Source: a virus. Taken from it: a stretch of 64,000 nucleotides of DNA. A program made the position numbers and the translations under genes. The notes below the pieces were generated by a model that saw nothing but the letters and a program-made list of their open reading frames with translations, had not been told where the DNA came from and ran no database searches. Within the stretch, counting starts at the first letter, position 1. The number at the start of each line of letters is the position of its first letter. Below, piece after piece: positions 3-21,048 of this stretch. The stretch spans positions 63,006 to 127,005 of the IMG/VR virus record IMGVR_UViG_3300024581_003792, one strand, 5' to 3'.

Positions 3-3000
3 AATCAACTAGGGATACGATCTGTTGGTGATTTTTATCGAAAAACAGACTTCGGCCAGCAGGCGACTTTTGATAAGACTTTAACTACAATAAAAAATAT
101 TGGTTATCAACAGGAGGTTGATTTAGCAAAAGATGCCCTAGACAAAGTAAGAAGTTTAACTGAATCTAAAAAAGCAGCCGTTTCAAAAACAAGATTAAAG
201 GGAGACTTATTCGAAAAAGCCATTTCTATACTAGCAGGTCAACCTTTTAAAAAGGGTAAAGATGCGTTAGATTTCTCAAGGGCACAAGATAGACCTGTAT
301 TGATGGATCCTGAGATTCGAGAGCAGATCGATTTAGGTGAAGACGTCATATATGGTGATGCAGAATCAGGAAGTGGGCACAAACTACATTTAATGAGAGA
401 TAAGGTTATTCGTGAGCTGGAAGAAGGAGGGGAATTATATAGTCTAATTCAAGGAGAAGGCGACATTAATTTACCGGGAGAAACTTTTACAGATATTGTT
501 GCCAACGGATCCGACGCCAAGCCAAAAGACTCATCTAGTATAAAATTAGATGATTTATTAACAAGTAGTCGGACGTCAAGCGGCACAAAAAAAGCGATAG
601 AAAAATCTTTAACAAAAAAATACGAAGGCAAAATAACTCCTGCGCAAAGAAAAAAAGAATACCAAAGAAATGTCAAATTTGATTATTACGTTGACGATGT
701 TAACCTAGAGAATCTAAAAGTAGACAGAAGAACTAGATTAGGCAAAGAACTAGGTAATATAGATCGGCAGTTTTTAGCAGTAACATCTCAAACCAACAGC
801 GACGGCCTTGTTCCTAATTTTGCATCTTTCATGTCTCCTCTTAGATTTGATATAGGCGACGAAAAAAGTAACGGTAAATCTTATGTAGCAAGAACAGCTA
901 AATCAGGAAAATTGTTCCTGCTAGATAGGGGTTTAAATCCATTCAGAGAATATATGGAAAGTCAGGGCAAGCCAACCCCTGTTATGAGTCAAGGAAGAGT
1001 AGGCAAAAGAGACGGATACTGGGTTAATCAATATGAATCAGATATTCTAGAGTGGGCCAAGCAACCTAACCCTCAGATTTTAGAAAGAGATATAAACGAG
1101 AAAAAAGCAAGAGAAGAATCTTTAGAGCATTTTAGGCAAGATCTTAAGCATGGAACTTTTAAGCCTTTAGAAGCAGGCTATCCCTTGCAATTAGGTGGTG
1201 GCGAATTAGTTAGATATAGTCCAGAATCTGGATTCGGAAAAACCATCGTTGATAAGATGGGGCCGGAATACAAACATATTTCTGTTAATGCTAAGAAAAT
1301 ACAAGACTATGCTAGAGACAATAACATAACTAAAAAATTTAATTTCGGTCCCGCGCCCGATTACGCGAAAGCATTAAACACAATGCTTAGACTACCAAAA
1401 GCCGACATTGAAAAACTAGATTTTATAAGGCCAAGAGAAAAAAGTGAAAACGAAAAGAAAAAAGAACTAAGAGATTCTAGCCCCAAAAGTCCAATAAAAT
1501 GGGATGTAAAGCAGGACATGGTAACTAAAAAAAAGAGTTATGCAATCAAAGCTAGTGACGATACATTTTCTTATTTTAAAAAATTCTTAAAGACTAAGGG
1601 CGTACCACAAAGAAGCATTCAGAATATCGATAAAGCCCTTCAAGGTAAAAGCGAAAGGCTTGAAGAAATAAAAAGAACGGCTATTGAAAAAAGTCAATCA
1701 AGATCAGGTAACCAAATGTTTTACGACGCTGCAGTACAGTCAGATAATTTTCTAAAGTCATTTTCTATACCTACTAAAGATCTTTATATTAAAGATTTAT
1801 CTAATTTAATAAAAGAATTTAATTCTACTGTTTATAAAGAATTTAATAGCGGATTGATTGCTGATTATTCACCTGTAGAAATGAATAAAGGGTATGTGCC
1901 TAATTTTATTGGTTTTAATGTACCGAAGAAATCGCATCAATTAATTGAAACATTTAACCAAATAACTGAAAAGAATAAGCTTATACCTACTGTTAATTCT
2001 TTGATGGAGCAAGGCGTGGATCGAGAGACCGCAATTCAGCAAACAAAAGACGATCAATTTGGACAAAAAAAATCGATGTTTAAGATTTTAAACAAGATGA
2101 AGTCCGAAGGTGTTAAACAATTATTCTTTGGGCAGGGTGGCAAAATATTCCCACATCAATCTGCTGGAACTATACCATTTACAATCGATAAAATTAAGGA
2201 TATAATTAATGGTACCGGATATAAAACTAATTTAAAATCAGATGGATTTGTTCCTAACTATGCTGTTACCTTATCAGACGATAAATATTATAATGAGAAG
2301 AGCGTAAAGCACGGAATTAGTCAACTTTATAAAAAGAGTGGAGGGCGACAAAAATTGACCCCGCAAGATTTAGAGTTTGCGTCTGAAAGATACATTTCTG
2401 CAATAAAAGATAGTGGTAAGACTTATCCCGGCGGGAACTTTAATGTCGGTGGTAAAAAGTTCAATTTTAATGAGGTGAGTATGGCTCTAATGAAGCATGG
2501 TCAGTTTTATCAGCCCAAAGAAGGAGAAGCTGTTGATATGTCAGAAGGCTTTGCGGAAGGGCTCATTCCAAACTATGCAGCAAAAATAAGAAACGGCGCT
2601 ATTTATCACAGTAAGACTAATAATAAAGCTGTTAGAGTAAAGAGAGCAGATCAAGCAGAGCGTATTGCATACATTAAACATCACACTCAGGATCATATGT
2701 TTGATCCCGAAGTTCCGTTTTCTGATCTAACACCCGCGACAAAGAAACAAGTTCAGGAATATCTTGGTAGGTCACCAACCAAAGCTAAGGGTTTCGTTCC
2801 TAATTTCGCCGACACTACTCTTTATAGAGGTCAGGGTCGCCCAACTTTGGACACGCCTGACATACTGAGTAATCTTCCGAGTTTTAGTGGTGCTGAAACA
2901 CCAGAAGATATTGTCGGTATTATTCAAAATTTTGTTAAATCTCATGTTAGCGGCGAATTGTCAGGGCAAAGACATAACCCTAATTCCGCCAAGAGGGCAT

Positions 3001-6000
3001 CAGGAGCCGTTTCTTTTTCAACAAGTAAAACGATAGCTAGAGAATTTTCCGGGCTAGGTACGATCAGGAGAAAAGCCACCAATCCAGATGGCAAAGTCTT
3101 TGAGAAAGAAGTTCCCCAGAAGAATATATTTAGCAAGCAAAAATTACTTAAAATTTTGAGTAAAGGCGCCGACATCGAGAATAATGTTTATCCGAAAGTA
3201 CAAGAGTTTAAGCAAGCAATTTCCTCCGGAGCGATACAGAAATGGGCCCAAGAAAACGGTGGAATTTTCTTGAATGTTTCAGGTACATATAATGACCAAG
3301 AAGCTTACGGAAAAATGGGCAAGGTAGAATATGGAAGATTTGAGCATAAATTTTTAGGCAAAAGAATGCCTGCAATTGTTCCTCCAAAAGAAATTGGTTT
3401 CAATAAAAACAAAACATTTCAAATCAGCCCAAGAGAAGAGGAAGTGATGCAGGTATTTGGTGATGGCCTTGTACCCAACTTTGCAGACCCTCAAAAGATT
3501 CGAAATGGTGCAATATATCACAGTCAAACTAACAACAAAGCTGTTAGAGTTGTTCGAGCAAATCAAGCCGAAAGAATAGCGTATATAAAGCATCATACTC
3601 AGGATCACATGTTTGACCCCGAAGTTCCGTTTTCCGATCTAATTCCTGCATCTAAAAAACAGGTTCAAGAGTATCTTGGCAGGAAGTCCAAAAACAAAGC
3701 GAAAGGCTTGATTCCTAATTTTGCTAACCCTCTTCAGGATGCAGTTAATCGCGAGAGAGCTGCAGGCATACCTCAATCAAGAATAAGGATAGAAAAAAGC
3801 AGTCAATTGAAAAGCCCAAAGAATCCCATGGGTCTAGCTGTTACAAATACACGCGATGAACCAGCCGGATTACAGCAAGGAATTAGGCGCGCAAAAAGCA
3901 TGGGTATTGACCCAAAATCTCATGGAGCCTCAAAAGGATTAGTGCCAAATTTTGCCGGAAATAAAGGTCAAGCAAAACAAGAAGGCGGACTAATGCAGCT
4001 TTTTGTTTTTCAGTCCTTATTAAGTACGGCAAATGGATTTTTGCAAGAATTTGCTGAAAACGGAAGTCAGGCAGCTAAAATGTTTTCTGAGGCAGGTCAA
4101 GCCGCTTCCAGTATGGCTTCAGTCTTTTTAACTACAAAAGAAATAGGCAGCCAATTGACCGAAGGCATGGGGATTGATCCTGGCAAAACAATAAACCTGC
4201 GCGATTTATTCTCAGAATCAGGAAGAAGAAAAGCTAAAGCTGGTACAGGAAGGTTTACACAGGGTTTAAAGGCTGCCGCAAAAGATGGCTTTGGTCAGGC
4301 TGGGTCAAAAGGAATACTGCAAGGCGTTAAGGCTTTCTCTGGGGGAATAGCTTCAGCTGGCAAGATGTTGTTGAGATTTACCCCAATGATTGGTAGCCTT
4401 ATAAGTCTTGGAACGGCTGCCAATGAAATTTTTAAATTGTTCAATGATGGAAAAGGCATTATGTCTTTATTTGAAAGCGCTTCAGAAAAAGCGGCTAGAA
4501 ATTTAGAGAAATTATCGAAATCGACAGAAGCTCTTGAATCTGCTCTTGGTGCGTTGCAAAATAAAACAGAGGTTTCAACAAAAATTGAAGAACTCGAGTT
4601 ACTGGGTTCTATGCGTACCCAAAAACAAGAGACTGAATTGTTTCAATTAAAAATGAAAGAGCTCGACATTCAGTCAAAAGTTCAGAAGTCTATGTCTCAA
4701 TTATTTCAGGAAAATGTAACAGGAACAGTTATTGCATCTAAGCTCAGCAATCAATTCACTCAAAGCGGAATTACCGTAGACGAACAGACAGAGACCCTTA
4801 AAAAATTAATCTTGGTACAAAAACAAAGAATTGCGATTGAAGAGGGCACAAAAGCATTTGGGGATTTGATAGAAAAAAGATTTGATAAATTTACAAGTAG
4901 TTTTGATTTTAGCTCTATAACCGGACAAGACGCTGAATTTCTTAAGCAAGCTTCCTCTTTCAGGGGAGCTCAAGCAGGCATGGCTCTTGGTGGAGTGATG
5001 GCTGGATCTGAAGATTTAGACCCAAAAGAAAGACTACGGATACTGGAAGAAAATATAGGGGTCATAGGAAAACTTGACCTGAATAAAATAAGCAAAAGCT
5101 CAGCTGACGGTATCACGGATTTCTTATCGGAAAAACTAAAAGGAACGGAAGACTTTGGCGGTTCATTAATAGCTGCACATATAGGAGATATTCTTGATAC
5201 AATTGATGATGCTGAAGATAATATGGTTGGCTTTGAAAAAATAGAAGCAGCAGCTGCCAAGAATGCACTTGATGCTTTTATTAATCAACTTAAAAAACAA
5301 AAAGACTTGCTCGAAAAGGATGGTGTTGCCCAAACATTAGCTCAAAGCACTGCACAAGTCAAGGAAGAATATTTAAAGATTATTCGTAGCATTAAGGATG
5401 AAAGAAAGCAAAGGCTTCATAGGCAGGATCTCGAAAATAGCATCAGCGCCACACAAAGAAAAATAGCTGAATCTCAAATCTCTTTACTTGATGAACATCA
5501 GGCAATTTCCAAGTCTACTTTAATCAGAAAAGAATCCTCTAGGAAAATAGAAGAGATATCTGAGAAATTTTCAACAGATATTTTAAAAGCCAACAATGCA
5601 TCTCTTGGCGCTATGCAGTCAGTGTCAGAAGAGTTTATTAAGACCGACCAGCTCGCCCAGCAATTTAGAAAAGGCGCTGGCGTTACAATGGCAGATGCTG
5701 TTGAAAACCTTAAAAAGAGTGTTGGGCAGAATCTTACATCTTTAGATTTATCTGGTATAGAAAATGCAATCGGAGAAGCAATATCACCTGCTGACGCGCA
5801 ATCATTAAGAAATTCATTTGCTTCAGTATCTTCGAGGATTGCTCACCTGGATGATAATGGAAAAATAATTAATGAGTTCATGAGGGAGTATGGCTCGATC
5901 ACAGAAGGAACAGTTGCTGCCGCGTTTATGGCCGCATTGAACCAGAAAGAGATAATGCAGCTTACCCAAAAGCAAAAAAATCTATTGACTGATTCTATTA

Positions 6001-9000
6001 ATGATTTAAAAAGAGCAAATCAAATAGCAGAAACTCAAAGAAAAAATGCTCTTAGTATTTTAAAAGAAGACGAAACATTAAAATTAATCCGAGCAAAAAC
6101 TGTAGACGGTGCAAGAGCATTGAAAGATAAATTAAGCGGTATAAATATACCTGAACTATCAATTAAATCAAACCAAGGAGAAACAGCTACTCTCTCAGTA
6201 TTGAATGATGCTCGTCGCGGACAAGTAAAAGCACTAATGGATTCTAGAGCCCTGGATGACAAAGCTTATCAACTTCAAATTGAGAAAAATAGAACAGAAG
6301 CTGAATCTTCTGTGCTATCACTTAGGCAGTTGCAATCTCAAGAAGCAATTTTACGATCAACACAAACCCAAAGTGAAGATTATAAAAATATCATACGCAT
6401 TCAGCAGGCGAAATTTGAATCAGAACTAAGCAACTCTTATTTAACAAAACGAGAAACGGTTGCAAGAGAAGATTTTCTAAAGATAGATTCTAAAAGATAT
6501 AAACTTGTTAACGAGCAGCTGGAAACAGAAATGTCAAATGCTAGAACAACAGCTCGACTAAATCTTGAAAAATTAAAGTTAACATCAATCACAGAGACAC
6601 TAGAAGAAATTGCGGCGACACAAATTAAAGAAGAACTAACTAGCACCCAATCTTCCTCTCTGATAGCTTCCGAAAAAAGCCTACAGCTAATAAAGAACCA
6701 AGAAATTTCTGAACAATTATTTAGAGCCTCCCAGCTACAAGAAAAGAGCAACCAGCTTGATGAGCTAAGACTTGCAGCCCGAAAAGCAAGCATGAGCCAA
6801 CAAGAGTTTGATCAACAAGCAGACACTGAAGTTGCGATTGAACGAGCTAATGCTATTTCTGCCGCAAGATTAAATATTGCAAAATTAAAAAGGTTAAGCA
6901 TTCAAGAAGAATTAAATAAGCAAGTCCAGATTGAGCTTACTGAAGAAATAACTTCTGCTCAAAGGTCTGCACTGATAGCCTCGGAAAAAGCAATTATACT
7001 TTCCGAAATGGGAGAACAAGGCCGACTCCTTCGCCAAGCAAATGAATTACAAGAATCCGCCAACAAGCTGCAAACCTTAGAAAATTCAATAAGAAAAGCG
7101 GGTATGAGCGAAAAACAATTAAGGCTAAATACAGAAGTTGATGTAGCAACGCAAAGAGCTGACGCTATAGCCGGAACCAGGGGCGCCGCAATGCGAGCTC
7201 AAATAACAGGCAGTCCTGAAGATGCGTTAGCTTTCGCTCAATCACTAAAAGAAACAAATAAATCATTAGGTAATGGTACCAGAGCTTTTGATCAATTAAG
7301 AATCAAGATGGCCGAATTAAATGTTTCTGCCGCCGATCTTGGATCTGACTTGGTTGACATAGGTATCGACGGAGCAAGAACAGGGCTTAAGCAATTATTC
7401 AAAGATATTGGATCGGGTGCAAAAAGCGCAAAAGAAGCATGGAGTGATTTTAGTTTAGGACTAGCAGAACAACTTCTTGATAGAGTAATGGAAGATAATA
7501 TCGATAAGATCATAAAAGATCTAACATATGCTTTTACAGGAGAAGACGGAAGTTCTGATGCCGAAAAAATAGCAGGATCAAACAGCCATTTGATCAGTGC
7601 TATAGGCTCACTAGAAGGAGTATTTAAATCCCAGGGAACCCACACCAAAGACTTACAACAAGAATTGCAAAAAGGAATACGTCTTAATGCTCCAACTATG
7701 GATTCAAAACTTTTAGGAATGGCTGAATTCGATAAAAGCATAGCAAATTTAAAAACGCAGGTCGATGCACTCGCTGGAGTTGTAAGTTTAGATGTCTCTA
7801 ATAGAAAAAATGAATCAAGAGAACAAACTAAAGATAGTCAAGATTTGACTGATTTAAATCCAAATGGAACTACTTCAAAATTAATTGAAAATGAGACTCT
7901 GATGCAACAGCAAACAGCAAGAGGTCGAGGGAGAGCCGCCAATCAAGTATTAGCTGATTCTGGATATAATCCAGATGCCATCCATACTCTGCCATCGGGT
8001 ATTTCACATCATAGGAATCCGAAATTAAGAAAATTAGAACAAGCTCAAACTGAAAGCTTAAAAAATATTCGCCACTTTGAATCTAAAATTTCTGATTTAA
8101 ATATGACGCCTGAAAGAAGGGAAGCTTTCAATAAGCTTAATATACAACCCGACAAAAAAGCAGGAGCAAAAAGAGTAGACAAACAAAGGCAAAGTATAGC
8201 AGAAGGTATCGAGTTTACCTTCAGGGAAGGTATTGATCAAACAATACAATCAGACAAACAACATAATATAAGTAACATAGAAGAACTTCAAAAGAATTTT
8301 AAAATAGGAACGGACCCTAAGGCCCGTCCAAATTTGGCTACTCGCTCGATGGTTCCTGAGATGGGAGAGGTTAGTTACTTTAAAGGAGAAGGAGATCCAA
8401 AAGATCCTGGAAACTGGGGCGAGCTTAATATCCCCGAGTTCATGAAGATCAAAGAGCAATCAACTCTTGAAATTCAAAATTTTTTAGGAGTTACTGAAAA
8501 TTTAGCCAAAGTATATAAAGATGTAGCTATTAATGCTGATGCAGCAAAAGATAGCATGGCTAATAATGCAAAACAACATGATGAGTACTCTATTAAACTA
8601 AAAAACGAGCAACAAAATTATGAAAATATAACCTTAGCAATAAGCTCAACCAACCAGGAGCTTAGCTCTTTTTCTTCAGTTATCAGTAAGACAAAACAAA
8701 ATCTAGACACATTTAATAATAAACTAGCAACAAGTAAAAATACTCAACCACAACCAGTGATTGAAAACCCAAAAGCGGGATTAAACCAATCAGGTGGAAT
8801 AATACAAAAATTTGCAGAGGGAGGTTTTGTAAAAGGACCAGCTGGAATAGACAGAGTGCCAGCAATGCTAACAGCTGGAGAATATGTTATACCAAAGGAT
8901 AGAGTCAAAGAACTAGTCCGGGGCGGCGAATTACAATATTTCAATAACGGTACAAGCGGGGAAGGTGCACAACCTAAAAAAAGCAGACTACAGGCCGGAA

Positions 9001-10364
9001 TGGAAGGTGTTGCAAGAACTGTAGTAATGTCAGAGGTCAGTCGAAGAATTGGAGAATCAATCAATAAAAAACAAGATAAGCCGCCGACTTTTGACATGAA
9101 AAGATTAGAGAGACTTAATCTTGGATCTGATGTGAGTCTTAAGAGCGGTGACCCCAGGCTTAGTGGTAAAGCTTTAGCTACAGACCCAGTCATGGAAGAC
9201 TATAAAGAATTTCTACTGGACAAAGCCGCATATAATGCGCAAAAGAAAAACGAAAAATTTAATAAAAGACTTCAGACCTTAGGAACAATCCTTGGTGCTG
9301 CCACTAGCTTCATGATGTCTGAGGTTACGAATATCCTTAAAGAACCTGTGCAGAAATTAGTGCAAGGAGTATCTAATAAAACTGGTGAGATTTTCGGGAA
9401 GTACGGCAATCAGTATACACAGGCAAAAGCCGAAGCTAAATTCAGAGGTCAAGACTTAAATTATTCTGATTTCAAGAAATCAATGTCTGTGTTTGAAAAA
9501 TCTGGGAATAAAGGTTTTTATCAAGGCCCACAAGGTAATCTTTTTTATATGTCTCAAGACAATGCTGGAGATTATGCAACGTTCAATCTAAATCGATTGT
9601 CTGACATTCAAGATATGGGTCCAGCGGAGCAGGCAAAAGTTCTAAATCTTTACAATACAACAAAGGTAAGAACTCAAGCTATGAGGCAATTTGCATCAAA
9701 CAATCAAATGGATGCAAAAGCAGAAATATTTAAAGCTAATGGAGGTAAGATACCAGCAATGCTAACTGCAGGAGAGGCAGTAATACCTTCTTCTATTGCT
9801 CAAAGAATTGGATACGATAACCTCAATAAAATGAATACAACTGGCCAAATTCCAGTAGTAAAAGGCAAGGGTGGGATAGATAATGTAGGACCAGTTGGAT
9901 TAAACGAAGGTGATTTCGTTATAAGAAAAAGCTCTACCGAAAAGCTTTTAAGGGAAAATCCTAGAATGATGCGCTTCGCCATACAAAACCCAGAAGGATT
10001 TAAGCGGGGCGAACAAGGTTATTACCAGGGAGGTATAGTAGGTACAACTCCTTCTACTGCAAGCGCACCATCAGTCACTTCACCTAGGGCCAGCAAGGCT
10101 GCTGCTAGCCCAGTCAATAACATGCAGCCATTGCTTCAAGCTGCTCAATCTCAAAATTCTCAACAAAATAATCAGACCACAAACAATGAGGTCACTAACA
10201 ACATTAATGTGAATGTTACGGTAGATAGAACGGGCAATGAAAGGGTAAGCGCAGACACATCAGAGGGATCATACGAGCAAGAGCAACAGCTAGCTGTAAA
10301 AATAAAATCAAAAGTTCTTGAGGTCATACGAGAGGAGAAGAGGATAGGTGGAGAACTTAGCTGA
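3..10364 (+). CDS. Giant tape-measure-like protein with internal cargo-domain array; 5'-truncated by window edge
   Basis: Frame is open from nt 3 with no stop before the track's TTG at 300. Long helical/coiled-coil body, hydrophobic segments at about 3990-4440, and typical TMP C-terminal motifs (FAEGGFVKGPAGIDRVPAMLTAGEYVIP; NNINVNVTV...IREEKRIGGEL). Lies directly upstream of tail-tip genes. Confidence 0.85.
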   Translation, partial: NQLGIRSVGDFYRKTDFGQQATFDKTLTTIKNIGYQQEVDLAKDALDKVRSLTESKKAAVSKTRLKGDLFEKAISILAGQPFKKGKDALDFSRAQDRPVLMDPEIREQIDLGEDVIYGDAESGSGHKLHLMRDKVIRELEEGGELYSLIQGEGDINLPGETFTDIVANGSDAKPKDSSSIKLDDLLTSSRTSSGTKKAIEKSLTKKYEGKITPAQRKKEYQRNVKFDYYVDDVNLENLKVDRRTRLGKELGNIDRQFLAVTSQTNSDGLVPNFASFMSPLRFDIGDEKSNGKSYVARTAKSGKLFLLDRGLNPFREYMESQGKPTPVMSQGRVGKRDGYWVNQYESDILEWAKQPNPQILERDINEKKAREESLEHFRQDLKHGTFKPLEAGYPLQLGGGELVRYSPESGFGKTIVDKMGPEYKHISVNAKKIQDYARDNNITKKFNFGPAPDYAKALNTMLRLPKADIEKLDFIRPREKSENEKKKELRDSSPKSPIKWDVKQDMVTKKKSYAIKASDDTFSYFKKFLKTKGVPQRSIQNIDKALQGKSERLEEIKRTAIEKSQSRSGNQMFYDAAVQSDNFLKSFSIPTKDLYIKDLSNLIKEFNSTVYKEFNSGLIADYSPVEMNKGYVPNFIGFNVPKKSHQLIETFNQITEKNKLIPTVNSLMEQGVDRETAIQQTKDDQFGQKKSMFKILNKMKSEGVKQLFFGQGGKIFPHQSAGTIPFTIDKIKDIINGTGYKTNLKSDGFVPNYAVTLSDDKYYNEKSVKHGISQLYKKSGGRQKLTPQDLEFASERYISAIKDSGKTYPGGNFNVGGKKFNFNEVSMALMKHGQFYQPKEGEAVDMSEGFAEGLIPNYAAKIRNGAIYHSKTNNKAVRVKRADQAERIAYIKHHTQDHMFDPEVPFSDLTPATKKQVQEYLGRSPTKAKGFVPNFADTTLYRGQGRPTLDTPDILSNLPSFSGAETPEDIVGIIQNFVKSHVSGELSGQRHNPNSAKRASGAVSFSTSKTIAREFSGLGTIRRKATNPDGKVFEKEVPQKNIFSKQKLLKILSKGADIENNVYPKVQEFKQAISSGAIQKWAQENGGIFLNVSGTYNDQEAYGKMGKVEYGRFEHKFLGKRMPAIVPPKEIGFNKNKTFQISPREEEVMQVFGDGLVPNFADPQKIRNGAIYHSQTNNKAVRVVRANQAERIAYIKHHTQDHMFDPEVPFSDLIPASKKQVQEYLGRKSKNKAKGLIPNFANPLQDAVNRERAAGIPQSRIRIEKSSQLKSPKNPMGLAVTNTRDEPAGLQQGIRRAKSMGIDPKSHGASKGLVPNFAGNKGQAKQEGGLMQLFVFQSLLSTANGFLQEFAENGSQAAKMFSEAGQAASSMASVFLTTKEIGSQLTEGMGIDPGKTINLRDLFSESGRRKAKAGTGRFTQGLKAAAKDGFGQAGSKGILQGVKAFSGGIASAGKMLLRFTPMIGSLISLGTAANEIFKLFNDGKGIMSLFESASEKAARNLEKLSKSTEALESALGALQNKTEVSTKIEELELLGSMRTQKQETELFQLKMKELDIQSKVQKSMSQLFQENVTGTVIASKLSNQFTQSGITVDEQTETLKKLILVQKQRIAIEEGTKAFGDLIEKRFDKFTSSFDFSSITGQDAEFLKQASSFRGAQAGMALGGVMAGSEDLDPKERLRILEENIGVIGKLDLNKISKSSADGITDFLSEKLKGTEDFGGSLIAAHIGDILDTIDDAEDNMVGFEKIEAAAAKNALDAFINQLKKQKDLLEKDGVAQTLAQSTAQVKEEYLKIIRSIKDERKQRLHRQDLENSISATQRKIAESQISLLDEHQAISKSTLIRKESSRKIEEISEKFSTDILKANNASLGAMQSVSEEFIKTDQLAQQFRKGAGVTMADAVENLKKSVGQNLTSLDLSGIENAIGEAISPADAQSLRNSFASVSSRIAHLDDNGKIINEFMREYGSITEGTVAAAFMAALNQKEIMQLTQKQKNLLTDSINDLKRANQIAETQRKNALSILKEDETLKLIRAKTVDGARALKDKLSGINIPELSIKSNQGETATLSVLNDARRGQVKALMDSRALDDKAYQLQIEKNRTEAESSVLSLRQLQSQEAILRSTQTQSEDYKNIIRIQQAKFESELSNSYLTKRETVAREDFLKIDSKRYKLVNEQLETEMSNARTTARLNLEKLKLTSITETLEEIAATQIKEELTSTQSSSLIASEKSLQLIKNQEISEQLFRASQLQEKSNQLDELRLAARKASMSQQEFDQQADTEVAIERANAISAARLNIAKLKRLSIQEELNKQVQIELTEEITSAQRSALIASEKAIILSEMGEQGRLLRQANELQESANKLQTLENSIRKAGMSEKQLRLNTEVDVATQRADAIAGTRGAAMRAQITGSPEDALAFAQSLKETNKSLGNGTRAFDQLRIKMAELNVSAADLGSDLVDIGIDGARTGLKQLFKDIGSGAKSAKEAWSDFSLGLAEQLLDRVMEDNIDKIIKDLTYAFTGEDGSSDAEKIAGSNSHLISAIGSLEGVFKSQGTHTKDLQQELQKGIRLNAPTMDSKLLGMAEFDKSIANLKTQVDALAGVVSLDVSNRKNESREQTKDSQDLTDLNPNGTTSKLIENETLMQQQTARGRGRAANQVLADSGYNPDAIHTLPSGISHHRNPKLRKLEQAQTESLKNIRHFESKISDLNMTPERREAFNKLNIQPDKKAGAKRVDKQRQSIAEGIEFTFREGIDQTIQSDKQHNISNIEELQKNFKIGTDPKARPNLATRSMVPEMGEVSYFKGEGDPKDPGNWGELNIPEFMKIKEQSTLEIQNFLGVTENLAKVYKDVAINADAAKDSMANNAKQHDEYSIKLKNEQQNYENITLAISSTNQELSSFSSVISKTKQNLDTFNNKLATSKNTQPQPVIENPKAGLNQSGGIIQKFAEGGFVKGPAGIDRVPAMLTAGEYVIPKDRVKELVRGGELQYFNNGTSGEGAQPKKSRLQAGMEGVARTVVMSEVSRRIGESINKKQDKPPTFDMKRLERLNLGSDVSLKSGDPRLSGKALATDPVMEDYKEFLLDKAAYNAQKKNEKFNKRLQTLGTILGAATSFMMSEVTNILKEPVQKLVQGVSNKTGEIFGKYGNQYTQAKAEAKFRGQDLNYSDFKKSMSVFEKSGNKGFYQGPQGNLFYMSQDNAGDYATFNLNRLSDIQDMGPAEQAKVLNLYNTTKVRTQAMRQFASNNQMDAKAEIFKANGGKIPAMLTAGEAVIPSSIAQRIGYDNLNKMNTTGQIPVVKGKGGIDNVGPVGLNEGDFVIRKSSTEKLLRENPRMMRFAIQNPEGFKRGEQGYYQGGIVGTTPSTASAPSVTSPRASKAAASPVNNMQPLLQAAQSQNSQQNNQTTNNEVTNNINVNVTVDRTGNERVSADTSEGSYEQEQQLAVKIKSKVLEVIREEKRIGGELS
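2583..3683 (+). repeat. Duplicated 63-aa module (2583-2771 and 3495-3683)
   Basis: KIRNGAIYHS...QEYLGR, 58/63 aa identical, with many synonymous nucleotide differences. Confidence 0.97.
2811..3464 (+). other. ADP-ribosyltransferase domain (R-S-E/ARTC class) inside the tape measure ORF
   Basis: LYRG (2820), HVSG, SFSTSxxxAxxF (3012) and E-E-E-V (3435) in canonical order. Confidence 0.75.
6520..7165 (+). repeat. Tandem ~104-aa helical repeat in the TMP
   Basis: ARLN.xKLK..SI...EE.TS.Q.S.LIASEK...A..LQE..N.L....RKA.MS occurs twice, 312 nt apart. Confidence 0.8.
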
Positions 10365-11437
10365 TGAATGGGACAGTTTTAGGTTATGAGCAACAGTTCT
10401 TTGTTAACGGAACACAGATATCTGGAGTTCAAAGTGTAGAAGGTTCCTACGCTATACAAGAAAGACCCATAAATGTATTGGGTTGGGGACATGTCAATAA
10501 AGATTATCATTACGGCATTGACCACATATCTTACGATGATAATAGCTTTATATTAGATGCGAATGGGTTTAGGTTTTTGCAAGAAAAGACATGTATTAGA
10601 GAAAATGAAAGAAGCCCCCATAATATGGCAGTGCTGGACGCACCTCTTGAAGGAGATTTCAGTATAAATTCTATTTTAGTAAGCGAAGACTTTTTTTTAC
10701 AATTTTTAGGTGACGAGCCTTTTACTGGAAGCATACATCACGGTGGTAGTTATTTTGGTTTTTATAGTGGGTACATAACAAATCATAGTGTTTCGTGCAG
10801 CATAGGCCAACTACCCACCACAACAACGAGTATAAAAGTTTTTGGAGATATAGGGGGGTCTCCCGATTTTATTAATCAAGAAAATGATTTCCCTATACTT
10901 AATGAAGATGGCTACCAAGTAGCCACAAGTGATTCTTACAATAATGGAATGTATAACGCTTCTGGAACCTATGAATATCCAGAAATAAAGCTACCAAACC
11001 AAGGGTCAATTATCGTAGAATGTACGGGAGCAAGCACGGATCGAGTCACTTCCTTTAGTCATTCTATTGACATACCAATTGATCCTATATATATTGTTGG
11101 TTCTGCTTATGCCGCGCAAGTAGATGTTATCTGGCCAGTAACCACAGAAACATCTTTTACTTTAGATATCGATGAATACAAGTATCAGAGTCTTAGAAAA
11201 TACATGAGAACTCCTACGGTTCAAGACATAAAAATTATGATTAATGATTGCTTCGGGGAGCCAATACAGTATTATACTGTAAAAAAAGCAAGGCTAATAT
11301 CAGAGACTATGTCGGCCTCAACGGAAGGAAGGTTAACTGTAAATTTAACATATAAATCTTATTATAATAAGAGAGGAGAAAAACCTCACGAGAACGAAAT
11401 GAACTATAGTAGATACTTAAAGGAAAAAGCTGATTAA
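10364..11437 (+). CDS. Putative tail tube-like/hub structural protein
   Basis: Follows the TMP with TGATG coupling; beta-rich, with two similar halves (GVQSVEGSY...PINVLG; RVTSFSHSIDI..DPIYIVG). Confidence 0.55.
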   Translation: MNGTVLGYEQQFFVNGTQISGVQSVEGSYAIQERPINVLGWGHVNKDYHYGIDHISYDDNSFILDANGFRFLQEKTCIRENERSPHNMAVLDAPLEGDFSINSILVSEDFFLQFLGDEPFTGSIHHGGSYFGFYSGYITNHSVSCSIGQLPTTTTSIKVFGDIGGSPDFINQENDFPILNEDGYQVATSDSYNNGMYNASGTYEYPEIKLPNQGSIIVECTGASTDRVTSFSHSIDIPIDPIYIVGSAYAAQVDVIWPVTTETSFTLDIDEYKYQSLRKYMRTPTVQDIKIMINDCFGEPIQYYTVKKARLISETMSASTEGRLTVNLTYKSYYNKRGEKPHENEMNYSRYLKEKAD

Positions 11438-12637
11438 ATGAGTAAGCCTTTTTTTAGATATGAGGATGTACCTTTGTTGTTAGCTGCAGAAGGGCAAGAT
11501 CCAGTTATGGTTTTCGCAAACAGAGCAAGTATATCTGCTAGCCAGCCTTTGGAGGCTAAAAAATTTATAGATGATTACAATATATCTTTTGCTGACGTAT
11601 CCGAAGATGTAGTTTTAAGTGAGGGTGATATTGTTGATTTTTTGCTTGGACCTCCAGGTGGGCCAGGAATGAAGATCCCTGAATCTGTTGAATTAATTAA
11701 AAGCGGACAAAAAATTGCTTACCCAAACGGACAGGCATTATACGTAGAGCAAGACGCTTATGCAGGAGATTATCACATAAAAGTAAAAGCTACCGGTGAT
11801 ACAAAATTAGATGTAAATAAAGATGTGCCCTATGGGGAGATAGACGCCCTTAGGACTTATGCTGCCCAAGGAGAAATTCGAGGCAGGTTGAACATAACTT
11901 ATTATATGAATACTGGTAATATTCATAGTTTTGCAGACTTAACTGGACTAATGGATCCAAACATATATCCTCAAGTCAATGAATCAAAAATTACAGGATC
12001 AATAGGTGATTATAAGTTTCATGATGCATACTTGTCTGAAATGTCTTTTTCTGCTGAACCTTTCCAGGTAATAGAGACAAATTTAGATTTAGATATCTAC
12101 GGCAAAATGGAGCACGTCGAAGGATGGTCAGAAAGAGTTTTTGAGGATTACAATTGTATAAGAGAAGTGCAGTATACTGTACCCCATGCTATGAACACAA
12201 AAATATATGGAGCTAATAGCGTAGGTATACAGCATCCCCTTAGCTTTAATTATAGCATATACGCAAATCAGATTCCGGAAATACCTTTACCTATTAGTGG
12301 TTTAGTTGATGAAGATGGTGAACTACCCACTAGAGTTGCTAAAAACGAAATAGATATAACGATAGACTTAGAGGGTGAAAGACTTGACCCCTTCTTGAAA
12401 ATCACAGGCCAAAGGGCCGATGTAACAATCAGTCTTTCGGATATAGGGTTTGAAGAAGAATTTACGGATAATAACTTCGGAAAACTTAAAGAATTTAAAC
12501 TTGCTGGTAACTTGGTGCTTCCTGACGCTGTTCCGCAAGAGCTAGAGCAGTACGGAGTAGTCGATCAAGATGCATTAGTTGTTTCTGAGGGTGGTTTCCT
12601 TCGTGGCAGAGCAAGCGTAAGGCAATCTTACAGATAA
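11438..12637 (+). CDS. Putative tail structural protein
   Basis: Position in the tail module; acidic, beta-rich 399-aa ORF. Confidence 0.5.
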   Translation: MSKPFFRYEDVPLLLAAEGQDPVMVFANRASISASQPLEAKKFIDDYNISFADVSEDVVLSEGDIVDFLLGPPGGPGMKIPESVELIKSGQKIAYPNGQALYVEQDAYAGDYHIKVKATGDTKLDVNKDVPYGEIDALRTYAAQGEIRGRLNITYYMNTGNIHSFADLTGLMDPNIYPQVNESKITGSIGDYKFHDAYLSEMSFSAEPFQVIETNLDLDIYGKMEHVEGWSERVFEDYNCIREVQYTVPHAMNTKIYGANSVGIQHPLSFNYSIYANQIPEIPLPISGLVDEDGELPTRVAKNEIDITIDLEGERLDPFLKITGQRADVTISLSDIGFEEEFTDNNFGKLKEFKLAGNLVLPDAVPQELEQYGVVDQDALVVSEGGFLRGRASVRQSYR

Positions 12638-15600
12638 TGGACATACCTACTTCAGATTGGGCGCCCGAAAAATCGTACAAAAAGCACGATATCGTAAGAA
12701 TGCGCGATCTTTCGACTCCCTACTATATAGAAAAAGTAGAAGATAAAAAAGTTGATCTACTACTGACGTTGGTTGATGACTGCAACAATAAAATTATAAC
12801 AGATCAATCAAAAAAAGTTGAACTTGACGTAACTGAGTTTAGTCAATTCTTTGAAAGGATTACTGTTCGAGAGACCGCCGAAATAGAATATGGCGTAAAG
12901 TTTAGACTTGATCCAAGAATAGGGTATTCCGCTAAAGTTATGATCAGGAAGGCCAGCGAAGAGTCAACGTTATCGGATCCAAACTTAACATATTTTCAGA
13001 TAGAAGATTATGGTATTGATAAATCGAATTCTGTAGGCATTGGTGTGGGTCTTAAATTTTATGATAAAAAAATGGACGCTATCGATGTGGTTAACCACAG
13101 AAAGATACAGAGAGCAATGGCATCTTCTGAACTCCATCATAGAGAGTGGTATAAAGCACAAATCGACATACATCCAAATGACATTCCTCAAGATGCCGTT
13201 TTTGGCTCTGCATTTATTTTTCTTTATGGATATGATACTGGTGGATTTGAGTTTCGTGATGTTGAAGTATACAACTTGAATCAATTTTTTTATTGCACTG
13301 AGGATCATATTTCCACTACCACCAATGAGCCTAATTATTTAAGATATTGGACTCAGGATTTTATATGGCGACCTTCTTATGGCTCAAGGTCAACTTTTGC
13401 GGCTATGAATGAATCTATGGTTCTTGGAGAAGGATCAGACTATGTAAATAATTTAGCGATCAACTCTTTGCCTTTAGAAATAGATCTAACTTTTAATAAT
13501 AGAACTGACCAGGAAGCTAGGGCAATTATTCATTTTTTACAAGAAAAGCATTTTCCTTATGAGTCTATATTTGGATTAGATTATAAAGGTGAAAGATTAT
13601 TGTCGAGCGATGTGCAAGATTTTAATTTCACATATACTTTTCCTTACAGAAAAGATTTAAAGTATACTTGTGTTGATTTTAGTCACTCAATAACATATAG
13701 AAATAACAATGCGATATCGGCTAAATTCATATGCAATACAGAAAGCAGCCTAAAAAGCGTTGATAGTAATTCTGGTTATAACCAGAGACTAGACGCAATA
13801 TTTCCTGTATTCGTGAATGAAGAAACATTTTTCGAAAAAGGAAAAATAGCGAGACTAGATTCATTTCCGGTAGAAGAGTTTATTGGAGAGGAAGCGCAGG
13901 AAAAAAGCGAAGAATCTCAAGATGATGATGATGAAAAAACAGTAGCCCTAACTTCTTTAGCCGAAATAGAGACATACGAGTACGATGAGAATGGCTACCC
14001 TAAGGCCGGGGTTCTATATTTTCGGGAAGAGCAAAACTTGCAAGTAGGTAACTGTCTTTACATTAGACCTGAATGGCCTGAAAATTCTGTATTCTCGGTT
14101 GGCGTCTGCAAGGTATTTAAAATATTAAGCCCCAAAGCTTTTGTGTTTGGTATAGGTCAAGGATACATCGAAAAAATTACATACACAAAAGAAATATGTC
14201 CGGGGCTAGAATGGCCTCTGGATGAACCAATCAAAGAGATATTCTTGGATTCAAGATTACAGCCTAATGGAGATACTCATAATGTTGGACCTTATGACCC
14301 AATAACAAATGACGAAGATGATCCTCTTGAGGATGACGAAACTCTGGAAAAAATCAGTAGATTAAGCGAAGAAAGAGACGCGCCTGTTGTTATATATAAG
14401 CTTGGTATGTGCCCTGAAGACTGTTTGAGCGCTCAACCAATTTTACCTCCATCTATTAAAGACGGGGTAGTTCCTCATAAAATAATTAATCCAGTAACGG
14501 GAGAAGAAAGGAAGCGTATAATATATTTAAAAAATTATAGAATGCTGCAGATGGAGGCGGACATTACTCCTTCTAGCTATGCTCTTTTTGTTACGCCCTT
14601 ATCTAGTTTTACTCTAGGTCCAGAAGATGATACGCAAGTATTAATTCCGGCTGTGGAGGGAAGAAGTAGTCTTTATATAGAAGACCCAGACTTGATTCCA
14701 AAATATCCTTGGCTGCAAGTTAGGAATTTTGAGCACAGGCCCAGCTTGACATTTAATTTAAACAATCAGCCATCTCATTACAAAAGTGAATTTGTTCAGT
14801 ATTATAATAAGAAATACAAAAAAAGCATAAATCAAAATATGTCCACATTTACTGTGGTGTTTGACAAAAGAAGTGATACTGAAGCTTCAGAAATATTACA
14901 ATTTCTTGAATCTCATTTAGGATATAAAAAATTTAGGTTCGTAATGCCGAGGCCTTATGGTACTGATACAGATCCGCTGACTACTCAAGCTAGACCAAGA
15001 AATTCTACATTTTATTGTCCAAGCTGGGATCACGAGATTGTGTACAAGAACAATCATACTATCACAGCTACATTTATAGAATCTTCAACAGCTATACAAG
15101 AAGATCTTGCAAACCCCAAAGGGCCGTGTTTTGGGGCGCATATATACAATCCTATTACTCAGCATGAGACATCTACTTATTCTTCCGTAGCATACGCATA
15201 CCATCAATCAGGCTTAGAGTACGAAAGAGAAAAAGGTTATTTTCTGAACATAAAACCAAAGCTGATAGAAATAGTTTTTGCAATTGATGTCAATACATCT
15301 ACATTAACACAATATTTAAGCGTGGAAGGTAATTCATACTCAAAATATCAACTGATCAGAGACTCTCTTCTTAAATTAATCTCTGGTTATGCTGATCCAG
15401 TTTCGAGTGATTTAAAGTTTCCCTCAACATACGGTTTCGGTAAATATAATACGCCTGAAATTTCTGACACAGATTCAATACCCCCTTGGTATTCTGCGGG
15501 CGATCCTATTGATGGAGTCATACCTAGCTTGCTTGAGCAAAATTATGAGCATGATCCAGCTAGAGAAAAAACAACAAATGAAACTCTACTAGATCAAGGA

Positions 15601-17787
15601 TATGATATTGAAAAGCTGGAAAGTTTTATTTTTAAAATTGAAGACTATATTATCAATGTAGGTTTTTCTTTTATGGGAGATGCCTCAAATTATCAAAGAC
15701 CCATAACTGGAGGTCGTGTTGCCGATCTACCTAATCATTCTAAATCTTTTGATAAAATAAAAATATTTGAATCCCTAAATACATATGCTCCAGAATCATC
15801 CTCGGGAAAAAACATAACAGATACCTTAGTTGATTGCTTGGCTCAATTCTATAACAGTCCTAAAGCTGGAATAGTTGACAAAAGAATGCTATTCATAGTT
15901 AGTGATTTTAGCTTTGATAGTGATGAATACGACAAATCATTATCTATAATTAATAATCTTAAATTAGGTAATTCTTTAGCAAAAAGAAGACCACTAGATA
16001 GCACTCTTTCTATATTTGGAAATCTTGGTTATTCTATTAATAAAAGAATTAGTGATTATGGAGGATCTGAATCCTGGAGAGTAACTAACGATGAAGATGG
16101 AGAGCAGAAATGGTCAAACATTTATAATCCTGATTTTACTGGAGATTTTAATCCAGATAATTTTGACCCAGATGATTTGCCTTATGAAGACGGCTCTTCT
16201 AATCCAGTTTGGTATAACGAATCTATTGAAACTCTTTGCATACCAGTAGGACTGGGTAAAACTAATTCTGTCAATAGTAATATTGTAAAATATGCAAGTG
16301 ATTACAAAACAGAAAAAGGTTTTGATGATACTCAACTTTACTACAATATAAGTAGCGAAACTCCAGGAGGCCTAGAAGCGCATAGAGCAATCAATTTTTT
16401 TGGAGTAGTGAGCGGTCTGACTGATTTAGTTAGACTAAACAAGCAAGACGGAAAAATAAATATGTTCTCTGTGACAGTTAGCAACTGTGGGCCAAATCCT
16501 ATACAGCTAAAAAATACAATAGTAAGCTTTTCAAAAGAAGCCGGGCAAGCCGAATGGACAACCAAGTCTATGCAGTTCGGTATACCTAAAAATAATGATA
16601 TTCAAAATTTAGAATATATACCAAAATATATAGACAATGAGAATCCAATTGTTGGGCACGGGGGGCAATATGCACAAGACCCAAATAACCAAAAGTTTCT
16701 GAATGAATCCAGATCCAACATCCTTTGGCATAGTTTTAATAATAAATACGAAGTCTATAGAAAAGGAGAACTAGAAGAGATTAACGGCGGATGGAAACCG
16801 GATAAAGAATTGTTTTTTATATCTGATGAATCAGAAAGTATTATTGGGGGTGAAGATTTTATATTAGTTACCGATCCGATTAGGGTTGGTGATGTAAAAA
16901 CAAAAGGAGTATTAAATAATGGAATAGCAAAAAAAGGATTCAAATATAGATCATTTGAGTCTAATTCTGGAATAGAAATACATGATTACAATATAGTTAA
17001 TGTTTCTGAAGAAAATTCTTTTCATGGAGATTATTCTCATTTACCCGTACTACAGAGAGATGAATCTATTGATTTATTTTTTGCAATAAAATCAAATAAA
17101 GAAATAAACTTACAAGAAAGGGCTCAATTGTTTTTTTATGCAGAGGATCTAAAAAGAAAAACGCTTGATTGTTATGCTAATTTTGATTTTGAAATAAATG
17201 TATCCAAGACAGAAAAACCTATTGAGATTCCAAAAATTAAATTAGATAGATGCAAGGGTAGGGTTTTTGCAATTGCAATGTGCAATTCTAATGCAGCTAA
17301 AGACGACAATTTTGATTTATATTTAAACGATACATTAATCCATCAAGAATACAACGAAGATACAAATACTTGGGAGAGCAAAGAACCTGGCAACAGTCCT
17401 CCAACTTTCACTCTTGATAGAGATCAATACTTAGGCAATGTTATATTGGGAGTGAGTCCTTCGGATATAGCGGGTGCAGAAAGAACATTTAGAATATTGC
17501 AGGGTCAAACTGGGTTAAATTGCCCGCCAAGTTTATTGCCCGTCAAATATTTTGACCAAAACTTAATTAAATGGGGAGAAGATGGGCCTAATAAATTATT
17601 TATACAAAATGTAAAAACAAGTAATAATGGTAATTATGGACAATTAATATTTTTATCCTATAAAATAATAAGTGATGACGGAACTGATGTAGAGTTAGCA
17701 GAACCAAACTATATATCTTCTATAGAATATGCGGGAAGAACTGGCGCTAGCTTTGGCCCATATGAAGTAAGAATTGATAGCTGTTAA
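12637..17787 (+). CDS. Minor tail protein with two lambda gpM-like domains, a vWA-like domain and insertions
   Basis: Two gpM-type segments (F.W/HRPS...INS/Q...L/VTF..R.D.EA..I..FL..H...I.A.F) at about 13350-13740 and 14730-15085; IVFAIDVNTS...LFIVSD vWA-like pattern at about 15265-15910. Confidence 0.7.
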   Translation: MDIPTSDWAPEKSYKKHDIVRMRDLSTPYYIEKVEDKKVDLLLTLVDDCNNKIITDQSKKVELDVTEFSQFFERITVRETAEIEYGVKFRLDPRIGYSAKVMIRKASEESTLSDPNLTYFQIEDYGIDKSNSVGIGVGLKFYDKKMDAIDVVNHRKIQRAMASSELHHREWYKAQIDIHPNDIPQDAVFGSAFIFLYGYDTGGFEFRDVEVYNLNQFFYCTEDHISTTTNEPNYLRYWTQDFIWRPSYGSRSTFAAMNESMVLGEGSDYVNNLAINSLPLEIDLTFNNRTDQEARAIIHFLQEKHFPYESIFGLDYKGERLLSSDVQDFNFTYTFPYRKDLKYTCVDFSHSITYRNNNAISAKFICNTESSLKSVDSNSGYNQRLDAIFPVFVNEETFFEKGKIARLDSFPVEEFIGEEAQEKSEESQDDDDEKTVALTSLAEIETYEYDENGYPKAGVLYFREEQNLQVGNCLYIRPEWPENSVFSVGVCKVFKILSPKAFVFGIGQGYIEKITYTKEICPGLEWPLDEPIKEIFLDSRLQPNGDTHNVGPYDPITNDEDDPLEDDETLEKISRLSEERDAPVVIYKLGMCPEDCLSAQPILPPSIKDGVVPHKIINPVTGEERKRIIYLKNYRMLQMEADITPSSYALFVTPLSSFTLGPEDDTQVLIPAVEGRSSLYIEDPDLIPKYPWLQVRNFEHRPSLTFNLNNQPSHYKSEFVQYYNKKYKKSINQNMSTFTVVFDKRSDTEASEILQFLESHLGYKKFRFVMPRPYGTDTDPLTTQARPRNSTFYCPSWDHEIVYKNNHTITATFIESSTAIQEDLANPKGPCFGAHIYNPITQHETSTYSSVAYAYHQSGLEYEREKGYFLNIKPKLIEIVFAIDVNTSTLTQYLSVEGNSYSKYQLIRDSLLKLISGYADPVSSDLKFPSTYGFGKYNTPEISDTDSIPPWYSAGDPIDGVIPSLLEQNYEHDPAREKTTNETLLDQGYDIEKLESFIFKIEDYIINVGFSFMGDASNYQRPITGGRVADLPNHSKSFDKIKIFESLNTYAPESSSGKNITDTLVDCLAQFYNSPKAGIVDKRMLFIVSDFSFDSDEYDKSLSIINNLKLGNSLAKRRPLDSTLSIFGNLGYSINKRISDYGGSESWRVTNDEDGEQKWSNIYNPDFTGDFNPDNFDPDDLPYEDGSSNPVWYNESIETLCIPVGLGKTNSVNSNIVKYASDYKTEKGFDDTQLYYNISSETPGGLEAHRAINFFGVVSGLTDLVRLNKQDGKINMFSVTVSNCGPNPIQLKNTIVSFSKEAGQAEWTTKSMQFGIPKNNDIQNLEYIPKYIDNENPIVGHGGQYAQDPNNQKFLNESRSNILWHSFNNKYEVYRKGELEEINGGWKPDKELFFISDESESIIGGEDFILVTDPIRVGDVKTKGVLNNGIAKKGFKYRSFESNSGIEIHDYNIVNVSEENSFHGDYSHLPVLQRDESIDLFFAIKSNKEINLQERAQLFFYAEDLKRKTLDCYANFDFEINVSKTEKPIEIPKIKLDRCKGRVFAIAMCNSNAAKDDNFDLYLNDTLIHQEYNEDTNTWESKEPGNSPPTFTLDRDQYLGNVILGVSPSDIAGAERTFRILQGQTGLNCPPSLLPVKYFDQNLIKWGEDGPNKLFIQNVKTSNNGNYGQLIFLSYKIISDDGTDVELAEPNYISSIEYAGRTGASFGPYEVRIDSC

Positions 17788-19279: not shown

Positions 19280-19280
19280 C

Positions 19281-21030: not shown

Positions 21031-21048
21031 ATATATAACGGCAAAAGG

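Follow-up and report, generated by a model that had tools for sequence, protein, structure and literature searches.

Here, we describe a tape measure protein (TMP) that very probably carries a modular cargo array, in which a series of domains (cassettes) is set off, from one another and from the structural parts of the protein, by one recurrent heptapeptide. The gene enters from upstream the stretch of DNA that was analysed, a window of 64,000 nucleotides (nt) corresponding to bases 63006-127005 of the single virus record IMGVR_UViG_3300024581_003792 (213,830 bp, 35.7% G+C, 100% complete according to CheckV). When the open reading frame (ORF) was extended in the whole genome, its 5' end was found about 3 kb beyond the window, giving a gene at genome positions 59987-73369 that encodes 4460 amino acids (aa; protein P0003). 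Between an N-terminal core of 631 aa (the N-core) and a long helical body, the protein holds nine cassettes of eight families, family F13 being present twice. By analogy with other phages, the virion probably carries the array and delivers it into the host. The complete proposal, a swappable effector array delivered with the virion and using the heptapeptide as a processing signal, is in our judgement almost as apt to be right as wrong. The comparative evidence is strong, whereas delivery, cleavage and activity are what we infer. Positions below are those of the window unless stated otherwise, and all features lie on its plus strand.

Architecture of the array

The motif G-[LFY]-[VI]-P-N-[FY] occurs 10 times in the TMP against 0.001 copies expected from the composition of the protein, and the next residue is A, I or V, giving the heptapeptide G-[LFY]-[VI]-P-N-[FY]-[AIV]. 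A preliminary description of the window had reported eight such motifs and the lengths of the segments between them. All eight are present in one frame, with their glycine codons at nt 804, 1890, 2244, 2559, 2790, 3465, 3705 and 3936, and the segments measure 356, 112, 99, 71, 219, 74 and 71 aa when a six-residue motif is used, as had been described. The count of eight holds for the window, whereas the full array has ten copies, the remaining two lying upstream at aa 632 and 889; these ten bound the nine cassettes. By regex scan, the copies in the window are GLVPNFA (copy 3, 804-824), GYVPNFI (copy 4, 1890-1910), GFVPNYA (copy 5, 2244-2264), GLIPNYA (copy 6, 2559-2579), GFVPNFA (copy 7, 2790-2810), GLVPNFA (copy 8, 3465-3485), GLIPNFA (copy 9, 3705-3725) and, at the junction of array and body, GLVPNFA (copy 10, 3936-3956). 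Motifs flank both outer borders of the array, between the N-core and cassette F1 and between cassette F0 and the body. The motif is restricted to the globular array, with no copy in the long helical body of this TMP, and a six-frame search of the complete 213,830-bp genome found none outside the TMP.

The ORF can be recognised as the TMP of a long-tailed phage from its core and from the lambda-like tail-tip genes downstream. Residues 1-631 form a TP901-type N-core, matching PF10145 (E 2.8e-26, 93.1 bits, cut-off 33.2), TIGR01760 (1.7e-38, 132.6 bits, cut-off 28.8) and phrog_4211 (4e-51); 14 PHROGs annotated as TMP match it at E<=1e-4. The window does not include the N-core, motif 1, F1 (aa 638-888) and motif 2, which are encoded further upstream (L001:4987-8007), and the window-borne part of the TMP gave no match when scanned as a whole protein against Pfam and PHROGs. 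The array is thus an internal insertion between the N-core and the body, not an N-terminal extension. The body (3957-10364, 2135 aa and the stop codon) is rich in Ala, Leu, Glu, Gln and Lys and poor in Pro and aromatic residues, whereas the array is rich in Lys, Pro and Tyr. Judged from composition by region, the former is typical of helical coiled coils and the latter resembles globular basic domains. The body had been described as helical and membrane-like; the sole strong membrane-like hydrophobic segment of the TMP (aa 429-457), however, is inside the N-core, upstream of the array, and not directly behind the last motif.

Relatives and cassette exchange

Protein searches with the array returned 297 giant TMPs of 2.7-6.4 kaa (thousand aa), all metagenomic, which with 407 IMG/VR stretches indicate a clade widespread in aquatic viromes. 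We analysed 121 relatives, drawn from JGI, ENA, NCBI and Logan assemblies and recruited by words shared with this array. Clustered at a mutual coverage of at least 70%, their 761 inter-motif segments give 168 families, of which 97 are singletons, and the 121 proteins display 105 different architectures. Within the array, 75% of 394 ends of BLASTP high-scoring segment pairs lie no more than 15 aa from a motif, compared with 16% expected. The closest relative, P0007, is 86% identical over 2222 aa of the body and is without the block formed by the ADP-ribosyltransferase-like (ART) cassette F3 and its two F13 neighbours, F5 being joined directly to F0; in addition, F16 replaces F12 and an extra F14 is present. 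P0004 has an extra cassette of 158 aa at motif copy 5, where nucleotide identity falls from 0.97 on the upstream side through 0.94 within the motif to 0.33 beyond it, and P0005 has one of 117 aa at motif copy 9. Neighbourhoods are equally fluid: the F3 family alone has 22 different left neighbours among the relatives, F5, present in 20 relatives, has 11, and F13 also adjoins cassettes other than the ART, which makes it not ART-specific. The cassette is evidently the unit of evolutionary change, with breaks in homology falling at the motifs. This agrees with the proposal in the preliminary description that segments should vary among close relatives while the motifs persist. The contrary findings that it had named, identical inter-motif content and domains spanning the motifs, were both looked for and neither was seen.

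Two positions in the array are more constant. F1 is usually the first cassette in the relatives, and F0 is present in 121 of 121, in 119 of them as the last module. Arrays of relatives also carry SNase cassettes (above the Pfam cut-off) and helix-turn-helix (HTH) cassettes. The length of the array shows no correlation with that of the body (r = -0.15). In the relative P0113 (6389 aa), the motif occurs 19 times, with groups also at aa 4123-4730 and 6106-6197, so that a second array can be present distal to the first.

The junction peptide

Among the 121 relatives there are 882 motif copies, between 3 and 19 per protein and starting near aa 630-650, with the consensus A-S-x-G-[LF]-[VI]-P-N-F-A; the peptide flanking the cassettes can also be written [AS]-x-G-[LF]-[VI]-P-N-[FY]-A. 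The regular expression itself fixes G, P and N, and conservation was therefore re-checked at F0 junctions located by a hidden Markov model (HMM). Here 215 of 262 junctions are canonical and 259 retain an x-P-[NSG]-[FYL] core. In some relatives tandem motifs are only 2-29 aa apart.

The conservation appears to reside in the peptide. Pairwise comparison of the ten copies gives a mean nucleotide identity of 0.728, and the value predicted by the encoded residues and the codon usage of the gene is the same (0.728 +/- 0.016). Third codon positions vary freely, and it follows that the motif is kept for a job at the protein level. Selection on the motif, as read from its codons, is thus on the peptide and not on the DNA, and recombination at the motif is a consequence rather than a cause of its conservation. 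The earlier suggestion that the motif might be a recombination joint is borne out insofar as crossovers map to it, and not insofar as it implies a special DNA sequence, the motif DNA being no more conserved than the amino acids require. Flanking every cassette, lying in disordered segments and being under strong selection as a peptide, the motif behaves like a recognition signal.

As a separate observation on codon choice, proline is encoded by CCT in 28 of 41 motif copies in L001-L004, against 156 of 494 proline codons elsewhere in the genes (chi-square p<0.001), and AAC is commoner for the motif asparagine than at other sites (p=0.014); these preferences leave the overall nucleotide identity at the level that the encoded residues predict.

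The cassettes as autonomous domains

The preliminary description held that the motifs bound autonomous units, and the structure models bear this out: AlphaFold gives confident domains in the segments, whereas the motifs fall in linkers of low confidence. The ART cassette was modelled with both flanking motifs and an alignment of 31 sequences (m20ac74260a4f); the domain occupies residues 14-229 at a mean pLDDT (predicted local distance difference test) of 75, and both motifs (copies 7 and 8) are below 50. A second model (m61bf67988173) covers F1-F12-F8-F21 in 1141 residues. In it F1 exceeds a pLDDT of 90, as does F8 (model residues 658-1000), and F21 is near 85 (residues 1022-1120). All seven motifs in the two models, five of them in the larger one, lie in linkers of pLDDT<50, including copies 3 and 4 of the window. 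The predicted template modelling score of 0.39 for the larger model points to no fixed arrangement between domains. Thus, four confident domains were modelled (F1, F8, F21 and F3) and none spans a motif. A search with Foldseek and VIA-align using the 1141-residue multi-domain query returned weak kinase and helical-hairpin rows only and is uninformative on F1 or F8 individually.

The most informative cassette is F3 (2811-3464, 218 aa), which had been called an ART from the window, a call that survives closer inspection. It has the canonical R-S-E order of residues, namely an arginine in YRG (R1949, nt 2826-2828), an SG...S-x-[ST] block starting at nt 3000 and E2152-x-E2154 (nt 3435-3443); all 31 homologues keep the R, S, G, E and E, and the match list of a structure search consists almost entirely of ART folds. 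No profile of a curated ART family in Pfam, NCBIfam, PHROG or PDB matched it. By predicted fold and catalytic residues, F3 represents a separate, very divergent family of putative R-S-E clade ADP-ribosyltransferases. The family is nearly confined to TMPs of this kind, with 31 clusters among 1.84 billion, nearly all of which have the motif. One ART-bearing match, P0144, has the variant motif G-x-[VI]-P-N-L. Stand-alone ART cassettes were sought as well and rejected, the short matches being contig fragments or split TMPs.

F1 is predicted to be a PD-(D/E)xK-like module. Its model has a helix/three strands/helix pattern, and D792, E804 and K806, which make up a D...(D/E)-x-K signature, are invariant in 43 homologues and lie on successive strands between the two helices. 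The duplicated module noted earlier is also real: F13 copy a (2580-2789, 70 aa) and copy b (3486-3704, 73 aa) are 82% identical and enclose the ART cassette. F0 (3726-3935, 70 aa), the constant closing module, is conserved more strongly than any other part of the array (52% mean column identity, alignment A5) and also more strongly than the TMP body; its HMM finds full-length matches at E 1e-35 to 1e-46 in 121 of 121 relatives and 407 matches in IMG/VR, and none in PDB or Pfam.

The other cassettes are defined by clustering and by the models. F8 (825-1889, 355 aa) is a fold family without Pfam or PDB match, present in 16-20 relatives and with 23 invariant residues (alignment A3). F21 (1911-2243, 111 aa) is a small, mostly helical domain (pLDDT about 75-93), and F5 (2265-2558) has 98 aa. 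F12 spans aa 896-1274, and its C-terminal 267 aa are encoded at 3-803. Scans of each cassette of this TMP against Pfam, PHROGs and NCBIfam gave no match, PDB profile searches with F3, F1, F8, F12 and F0 gave nothing below E 0.2, and Pfam scans run member by member on families F1 and F8 pointed to no consistent family.

The C-terminal half of F12 (aa 1075-1248; L001:8209-8730, partly in the window at 3-725) has about 40 invariant residues, for example in YGD, G-x-GH, MR-x-K-x-x-RE and LPG-x-x-F-x-DI. Such invariance suggests an enzyme, with no database match. In the relative P0004, the same F12 cassette also has a CI-repressor-type HTH.

Proposed delivery and processing, and alternative readings

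In other long-tailed phages, as set out with the neck structure of phage 80alpha, the TMP is a trimer in the tail tube with its C-termini at the tip, its N-termini touch the tail completion protein and the DNA end, and it is ejected as a pilot protein that is "often seen fragmented" on gels (10.1101/2024.12.10.627806). Here, the variable cargo array would have been built between a TP901-type N-core and a long helical ruler, as a string of autonomous domains each flanked by the heptapeptide on both sides. The TMP trimer would be expelled ahead of the DNA, as is known for other phages, and since TMP N-termini are at the DNA end in other phages, an N-proximal array may exit the tail immediately before the DNA. 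The host would then receive about three copies of every cassette per virion before any phage gene is expressed, and the cassettes could act as host-takeover or anti-defence enzymes. The heptapeptide would be a signal read by one conserved factor, most likely as a proteolytic processing site, and cutting would free the cassettes from one another and from the structural parts of the TMP. In-frame recombination between motif copies could swap, insert or delete whole cassettes, because the motif is the only sequence common to all cassette borders.

Several points speak against this proposal. Recruiting the relatives by shared words introduces an ascertainment bias into the statement that all of them have F0 and the motif, and no cultured relative was found when megablast and tblastn were run against 50,697 phage records. 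For seven of the nine cassettes no function is recognisable, leaving most of the array functionally unassigned, and F12 is modelled mostly at low confidence. With regard to cleavage, a near-invariant P-N core is no more characteristic of cleavage sites than of binding motifs or turns; Pfam recognised no peptidase domain in 13 arrays, where most cassettes are of unknown fold; and prohead proteases of the Pfam families S78, ClpP and S49, the only three searched, were not found in the genome. Finally, the lumen of a tail tube is about 4 nm wide, into which a folded domain of 22-40 kDa fits badly in three copies. Such a narrow lumen implies that the cassettes are stored unfolded or elsewhere, or that the delivery reading is wrong in part.

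That the motif is a cleavage site is a tentative assignment, which we favour over an uncut docking or handling peptide. A general prohead-protease site was considered separately and is unlikely, since no other protein of the genome carries the motif; nor were S78, ClpP and S49 found. The docking alternative, in which the motif stays uncut, serves one conserved partner and leaves the array attached to the TMP in the host envelope, seems to us rather unlikely. During loading the partner might be the tube lumen or a tail assembly chaperone, and during entry a chaperone or translocon of the host; the motif would keep any cargo in a transport-competent state. A nearly invariant peptide of 7-10 residues with a fixed P-N core in disordered linkers suits such a role, as does the lack of a protease in the searches just described, and tandem motifs would be explained by a repeated binding site, while they add nothing for cleavage. 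A SurA-binding peptide, WEYIPNV, shares the I-P-N core, and entry of phage HK97 needs the periplasmic chaperone FkpA. Yet the motif is absent from the helical body, which also must be loaded and ejected, and unrelated enzymes with different targets would work better once released.

Cleavage might instead occur before or during tail assembly, the array being a late-gene polyprotein that is cut off and not carried in the virion. Its cassettes would then act in the already infected cell, for example in host DNA breakdown or host protein modification, or only in tail assembly. With motifs on both outer sides the whole array could be excised, the absence of correlation between array and body lengths looks as if the array were not counted towards tail length, and the problem of space in the tube lumen would disappear. 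We nevertheless consider this improbable. Excision would split the N-core from the ruler, yet the two are kept in one conserved ORF in all relatives; it would be odd for enzymes to be expressed late and in stoichiometric amounts with a structural protein; and turnover of the kind seen in conflict genes, with almost as many architectures as proteins, fits first-contact effectors better.

It is more improbable still that the segments are structural filler or decoration without an effector role, with the motif a linker that survives since recombination there is tolerated. The many cassettes without recognisable function would fit, but the invariant catalytic residues of the ART cassette, the invariant D...ExK of F1 and the SNase of relatives would not, and neither would the strong purifying selection on a peptide whose codons vary freely or an F0 that is more conserved than the TMP body. 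The notion that the motif is a DNA-level recombination signal, or that the pattern is an artefact of assembly or gene calling, is hardly credible and was rejected: crossovers do map to the motif, but the nucleotide identity of its copies is what their amino acids predict, third positions vary, and the same architecture recurs in 121 independent proteins and F0 in 407 IMG/VR stretches.

Returning to the proposal of delivered and processed cassettes, a more general form of it, which we regard as less likely than not, would make the TMP a plug-and-play effector platform. Any domain placed between two motif copies would be stowed in the tail and released in the first seconds of infection; one conserved peptide-recognising factor would release the cassettes, and the same peptide would enable the in-frame trade of cassettes. 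If so, the more than 160 cassette families, nearly all of them lacking known relatives, would be a rich source of new enzymes for host takeover and anti-defence.

Comparison with known systems

TMPs with embedded enzymes are familiar from the cell-wall motifs of mycobacteriophage TMPs, pb2 of phage T5 and the lytic domains of staphylococcal phage TMPs, with one or two cell-wall hydrolase motifs, usually near the C-terminus. The protein described here likewise uses a TMP as a vehicle for catalytic domains. It differs in that the 3-19 motif-bounded cassettes are unrelated, shuffled and mostly directed at the cytoplasm (ART, nuclease-like, HTH). Among virion-carried proteins, T4 Alt is an ART injected with the DNA, and T4 internal proteins have a short targeting peptide, which the prohead protease cuts off. 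Those are separate, head-packaged proteins cut at L/I-x-E, and no such protease or site was seen here. The bacterial MARTX toxins resemble the TMP in having an array of swappable effector domains in one polypeptide; they are released by cleavage between domains through their own cysteine protease domain, whereas no protease domain was recognised in the TMP array. Short peptides at borders of module exchange are also known from polymorphic toxins (VENN of CdiA, PxxxxDPxGL of Rhs). These mark one border before a single C-terminal toxin that has an immunity gene, while here each module, within a virion protein, has the motif at either end, with no immunity genes evident.

The closest parallel in content is provided by the polyvalent proteins of Iyer, Burroughs, Anand, de Souza and Aravind (2017), mosaic multi-effector polypeptides of phages and conjugative elements that include ARTs, nucleases, DNA-binding domains and numerous novel domains, and for which entry into the host along with the DNA and proteolytic processing have been predicted (PMC5512222). 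They are head-packaged or linked to conjugation and have zincin-like, assemblin-like or other peptidase domains (PMC5512222). The array shares with them several unrelated effector-type domains in mosaic architectures. The carrier here is a TMP, of which that paper makes no mention (PMC5512222), and every border has one conserved heptapeptide, with no peptidase domain recognised. The Sle1-type TMP-related effectors of actinobacterial contractile injection systems, a reconfigurable platform in a tail-like tube (Nagakubo et al. 2026), are, according to the abstract of that report, similar in being TMP-derived and in having an exchangeable functional domain that differs between relatives (PMC13277306). 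They differ in that Sle1 has a single C-terminal functional domain and belongs to a non-phage system, and the abstract describes neither a junction motif nor a multi-cassette array (PMC13277306). Full-text searches for motif strings together with tape measure proteins returned no paper describing such an array. None of the systems compared unites a TMP as carrier, a large number of cassettes and a junction peptide present at every border.

Virion-borne proteins act before phage gene expression and are the first line against host defences, and the known examples are head-packaged. If the proposal is true, a TMP with shuffled enzymes would represent a second, tail-borne route of delivery, and would pose the physical puzzle of how domains of 200-400 residues, in three copies, are stored in and passed through a narrow tube. 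The junction peptide itself offers a handle for finding such cassettes in metagenomes, where the families found in the relatives are nearly all of unknown fold or function. Should the peptide serve in processing or loading, it may also become a tool for loading chosen proteins into phage tails.

Genomic context

The virus, an uncultured jumbo phage of marine origin, has a lambda-like tail tip. A scan of genome collections for a host returned only 8 contigs of metagenome-assembled genomes from unrelated phyla, which are probably mis-binned phage DNA. Matches to PHROGs and Pfam place the lambda-like tail-tip genes at 12637-26313. They comprise a 1716-aa protein with a gpM-like minor tail domain (12637-17787; PF05939, confined to aa 698-815, the remainder being unannotated), a gpL-like protein (19281-20318), a gpK-like protein with JAB and NlpC/P60 domains (20260-21030) and a gpI-gpJ fusion (21049-26313). 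Relatives keep the same order of tail-module genes downstream of the TMP.

Between the TMP and the gpM-like protein, at 10364-12637, are two conserved genes without assigned function, encoding 357 and 399 aa. The same pair is found in relatives (337-357 and 400-402 aa), and the first gene has a sub-threshold match to Phage_tube_2 (E 0.0097). Directly before the TMP lie genes for proteins of 769 aa (L001:1215-3524) and 452 aa (L001:3591-4949), which are alike at their N-termini and have no Pfam or PHROG match; between these and the TMP there is no obvious pair of tail-assembly-chaperone genes.

Two repeats were noted in the TMP downstream of the array. The motif PAMLTAGE.VIP occurs twice in the C-terminal part, at 8859-8882 and 9753-9776, each time after a Gly-rich stretch, and the first copy is covered by one weak match to the unannotated phrog_13338 (6.6e-07). 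Within the helical body, an internal duplication of about 104 aa lies at 6552-7170, its stretches, which start ARLNLEKLKL and ARLNIAKLKR, being 104 aa apart.

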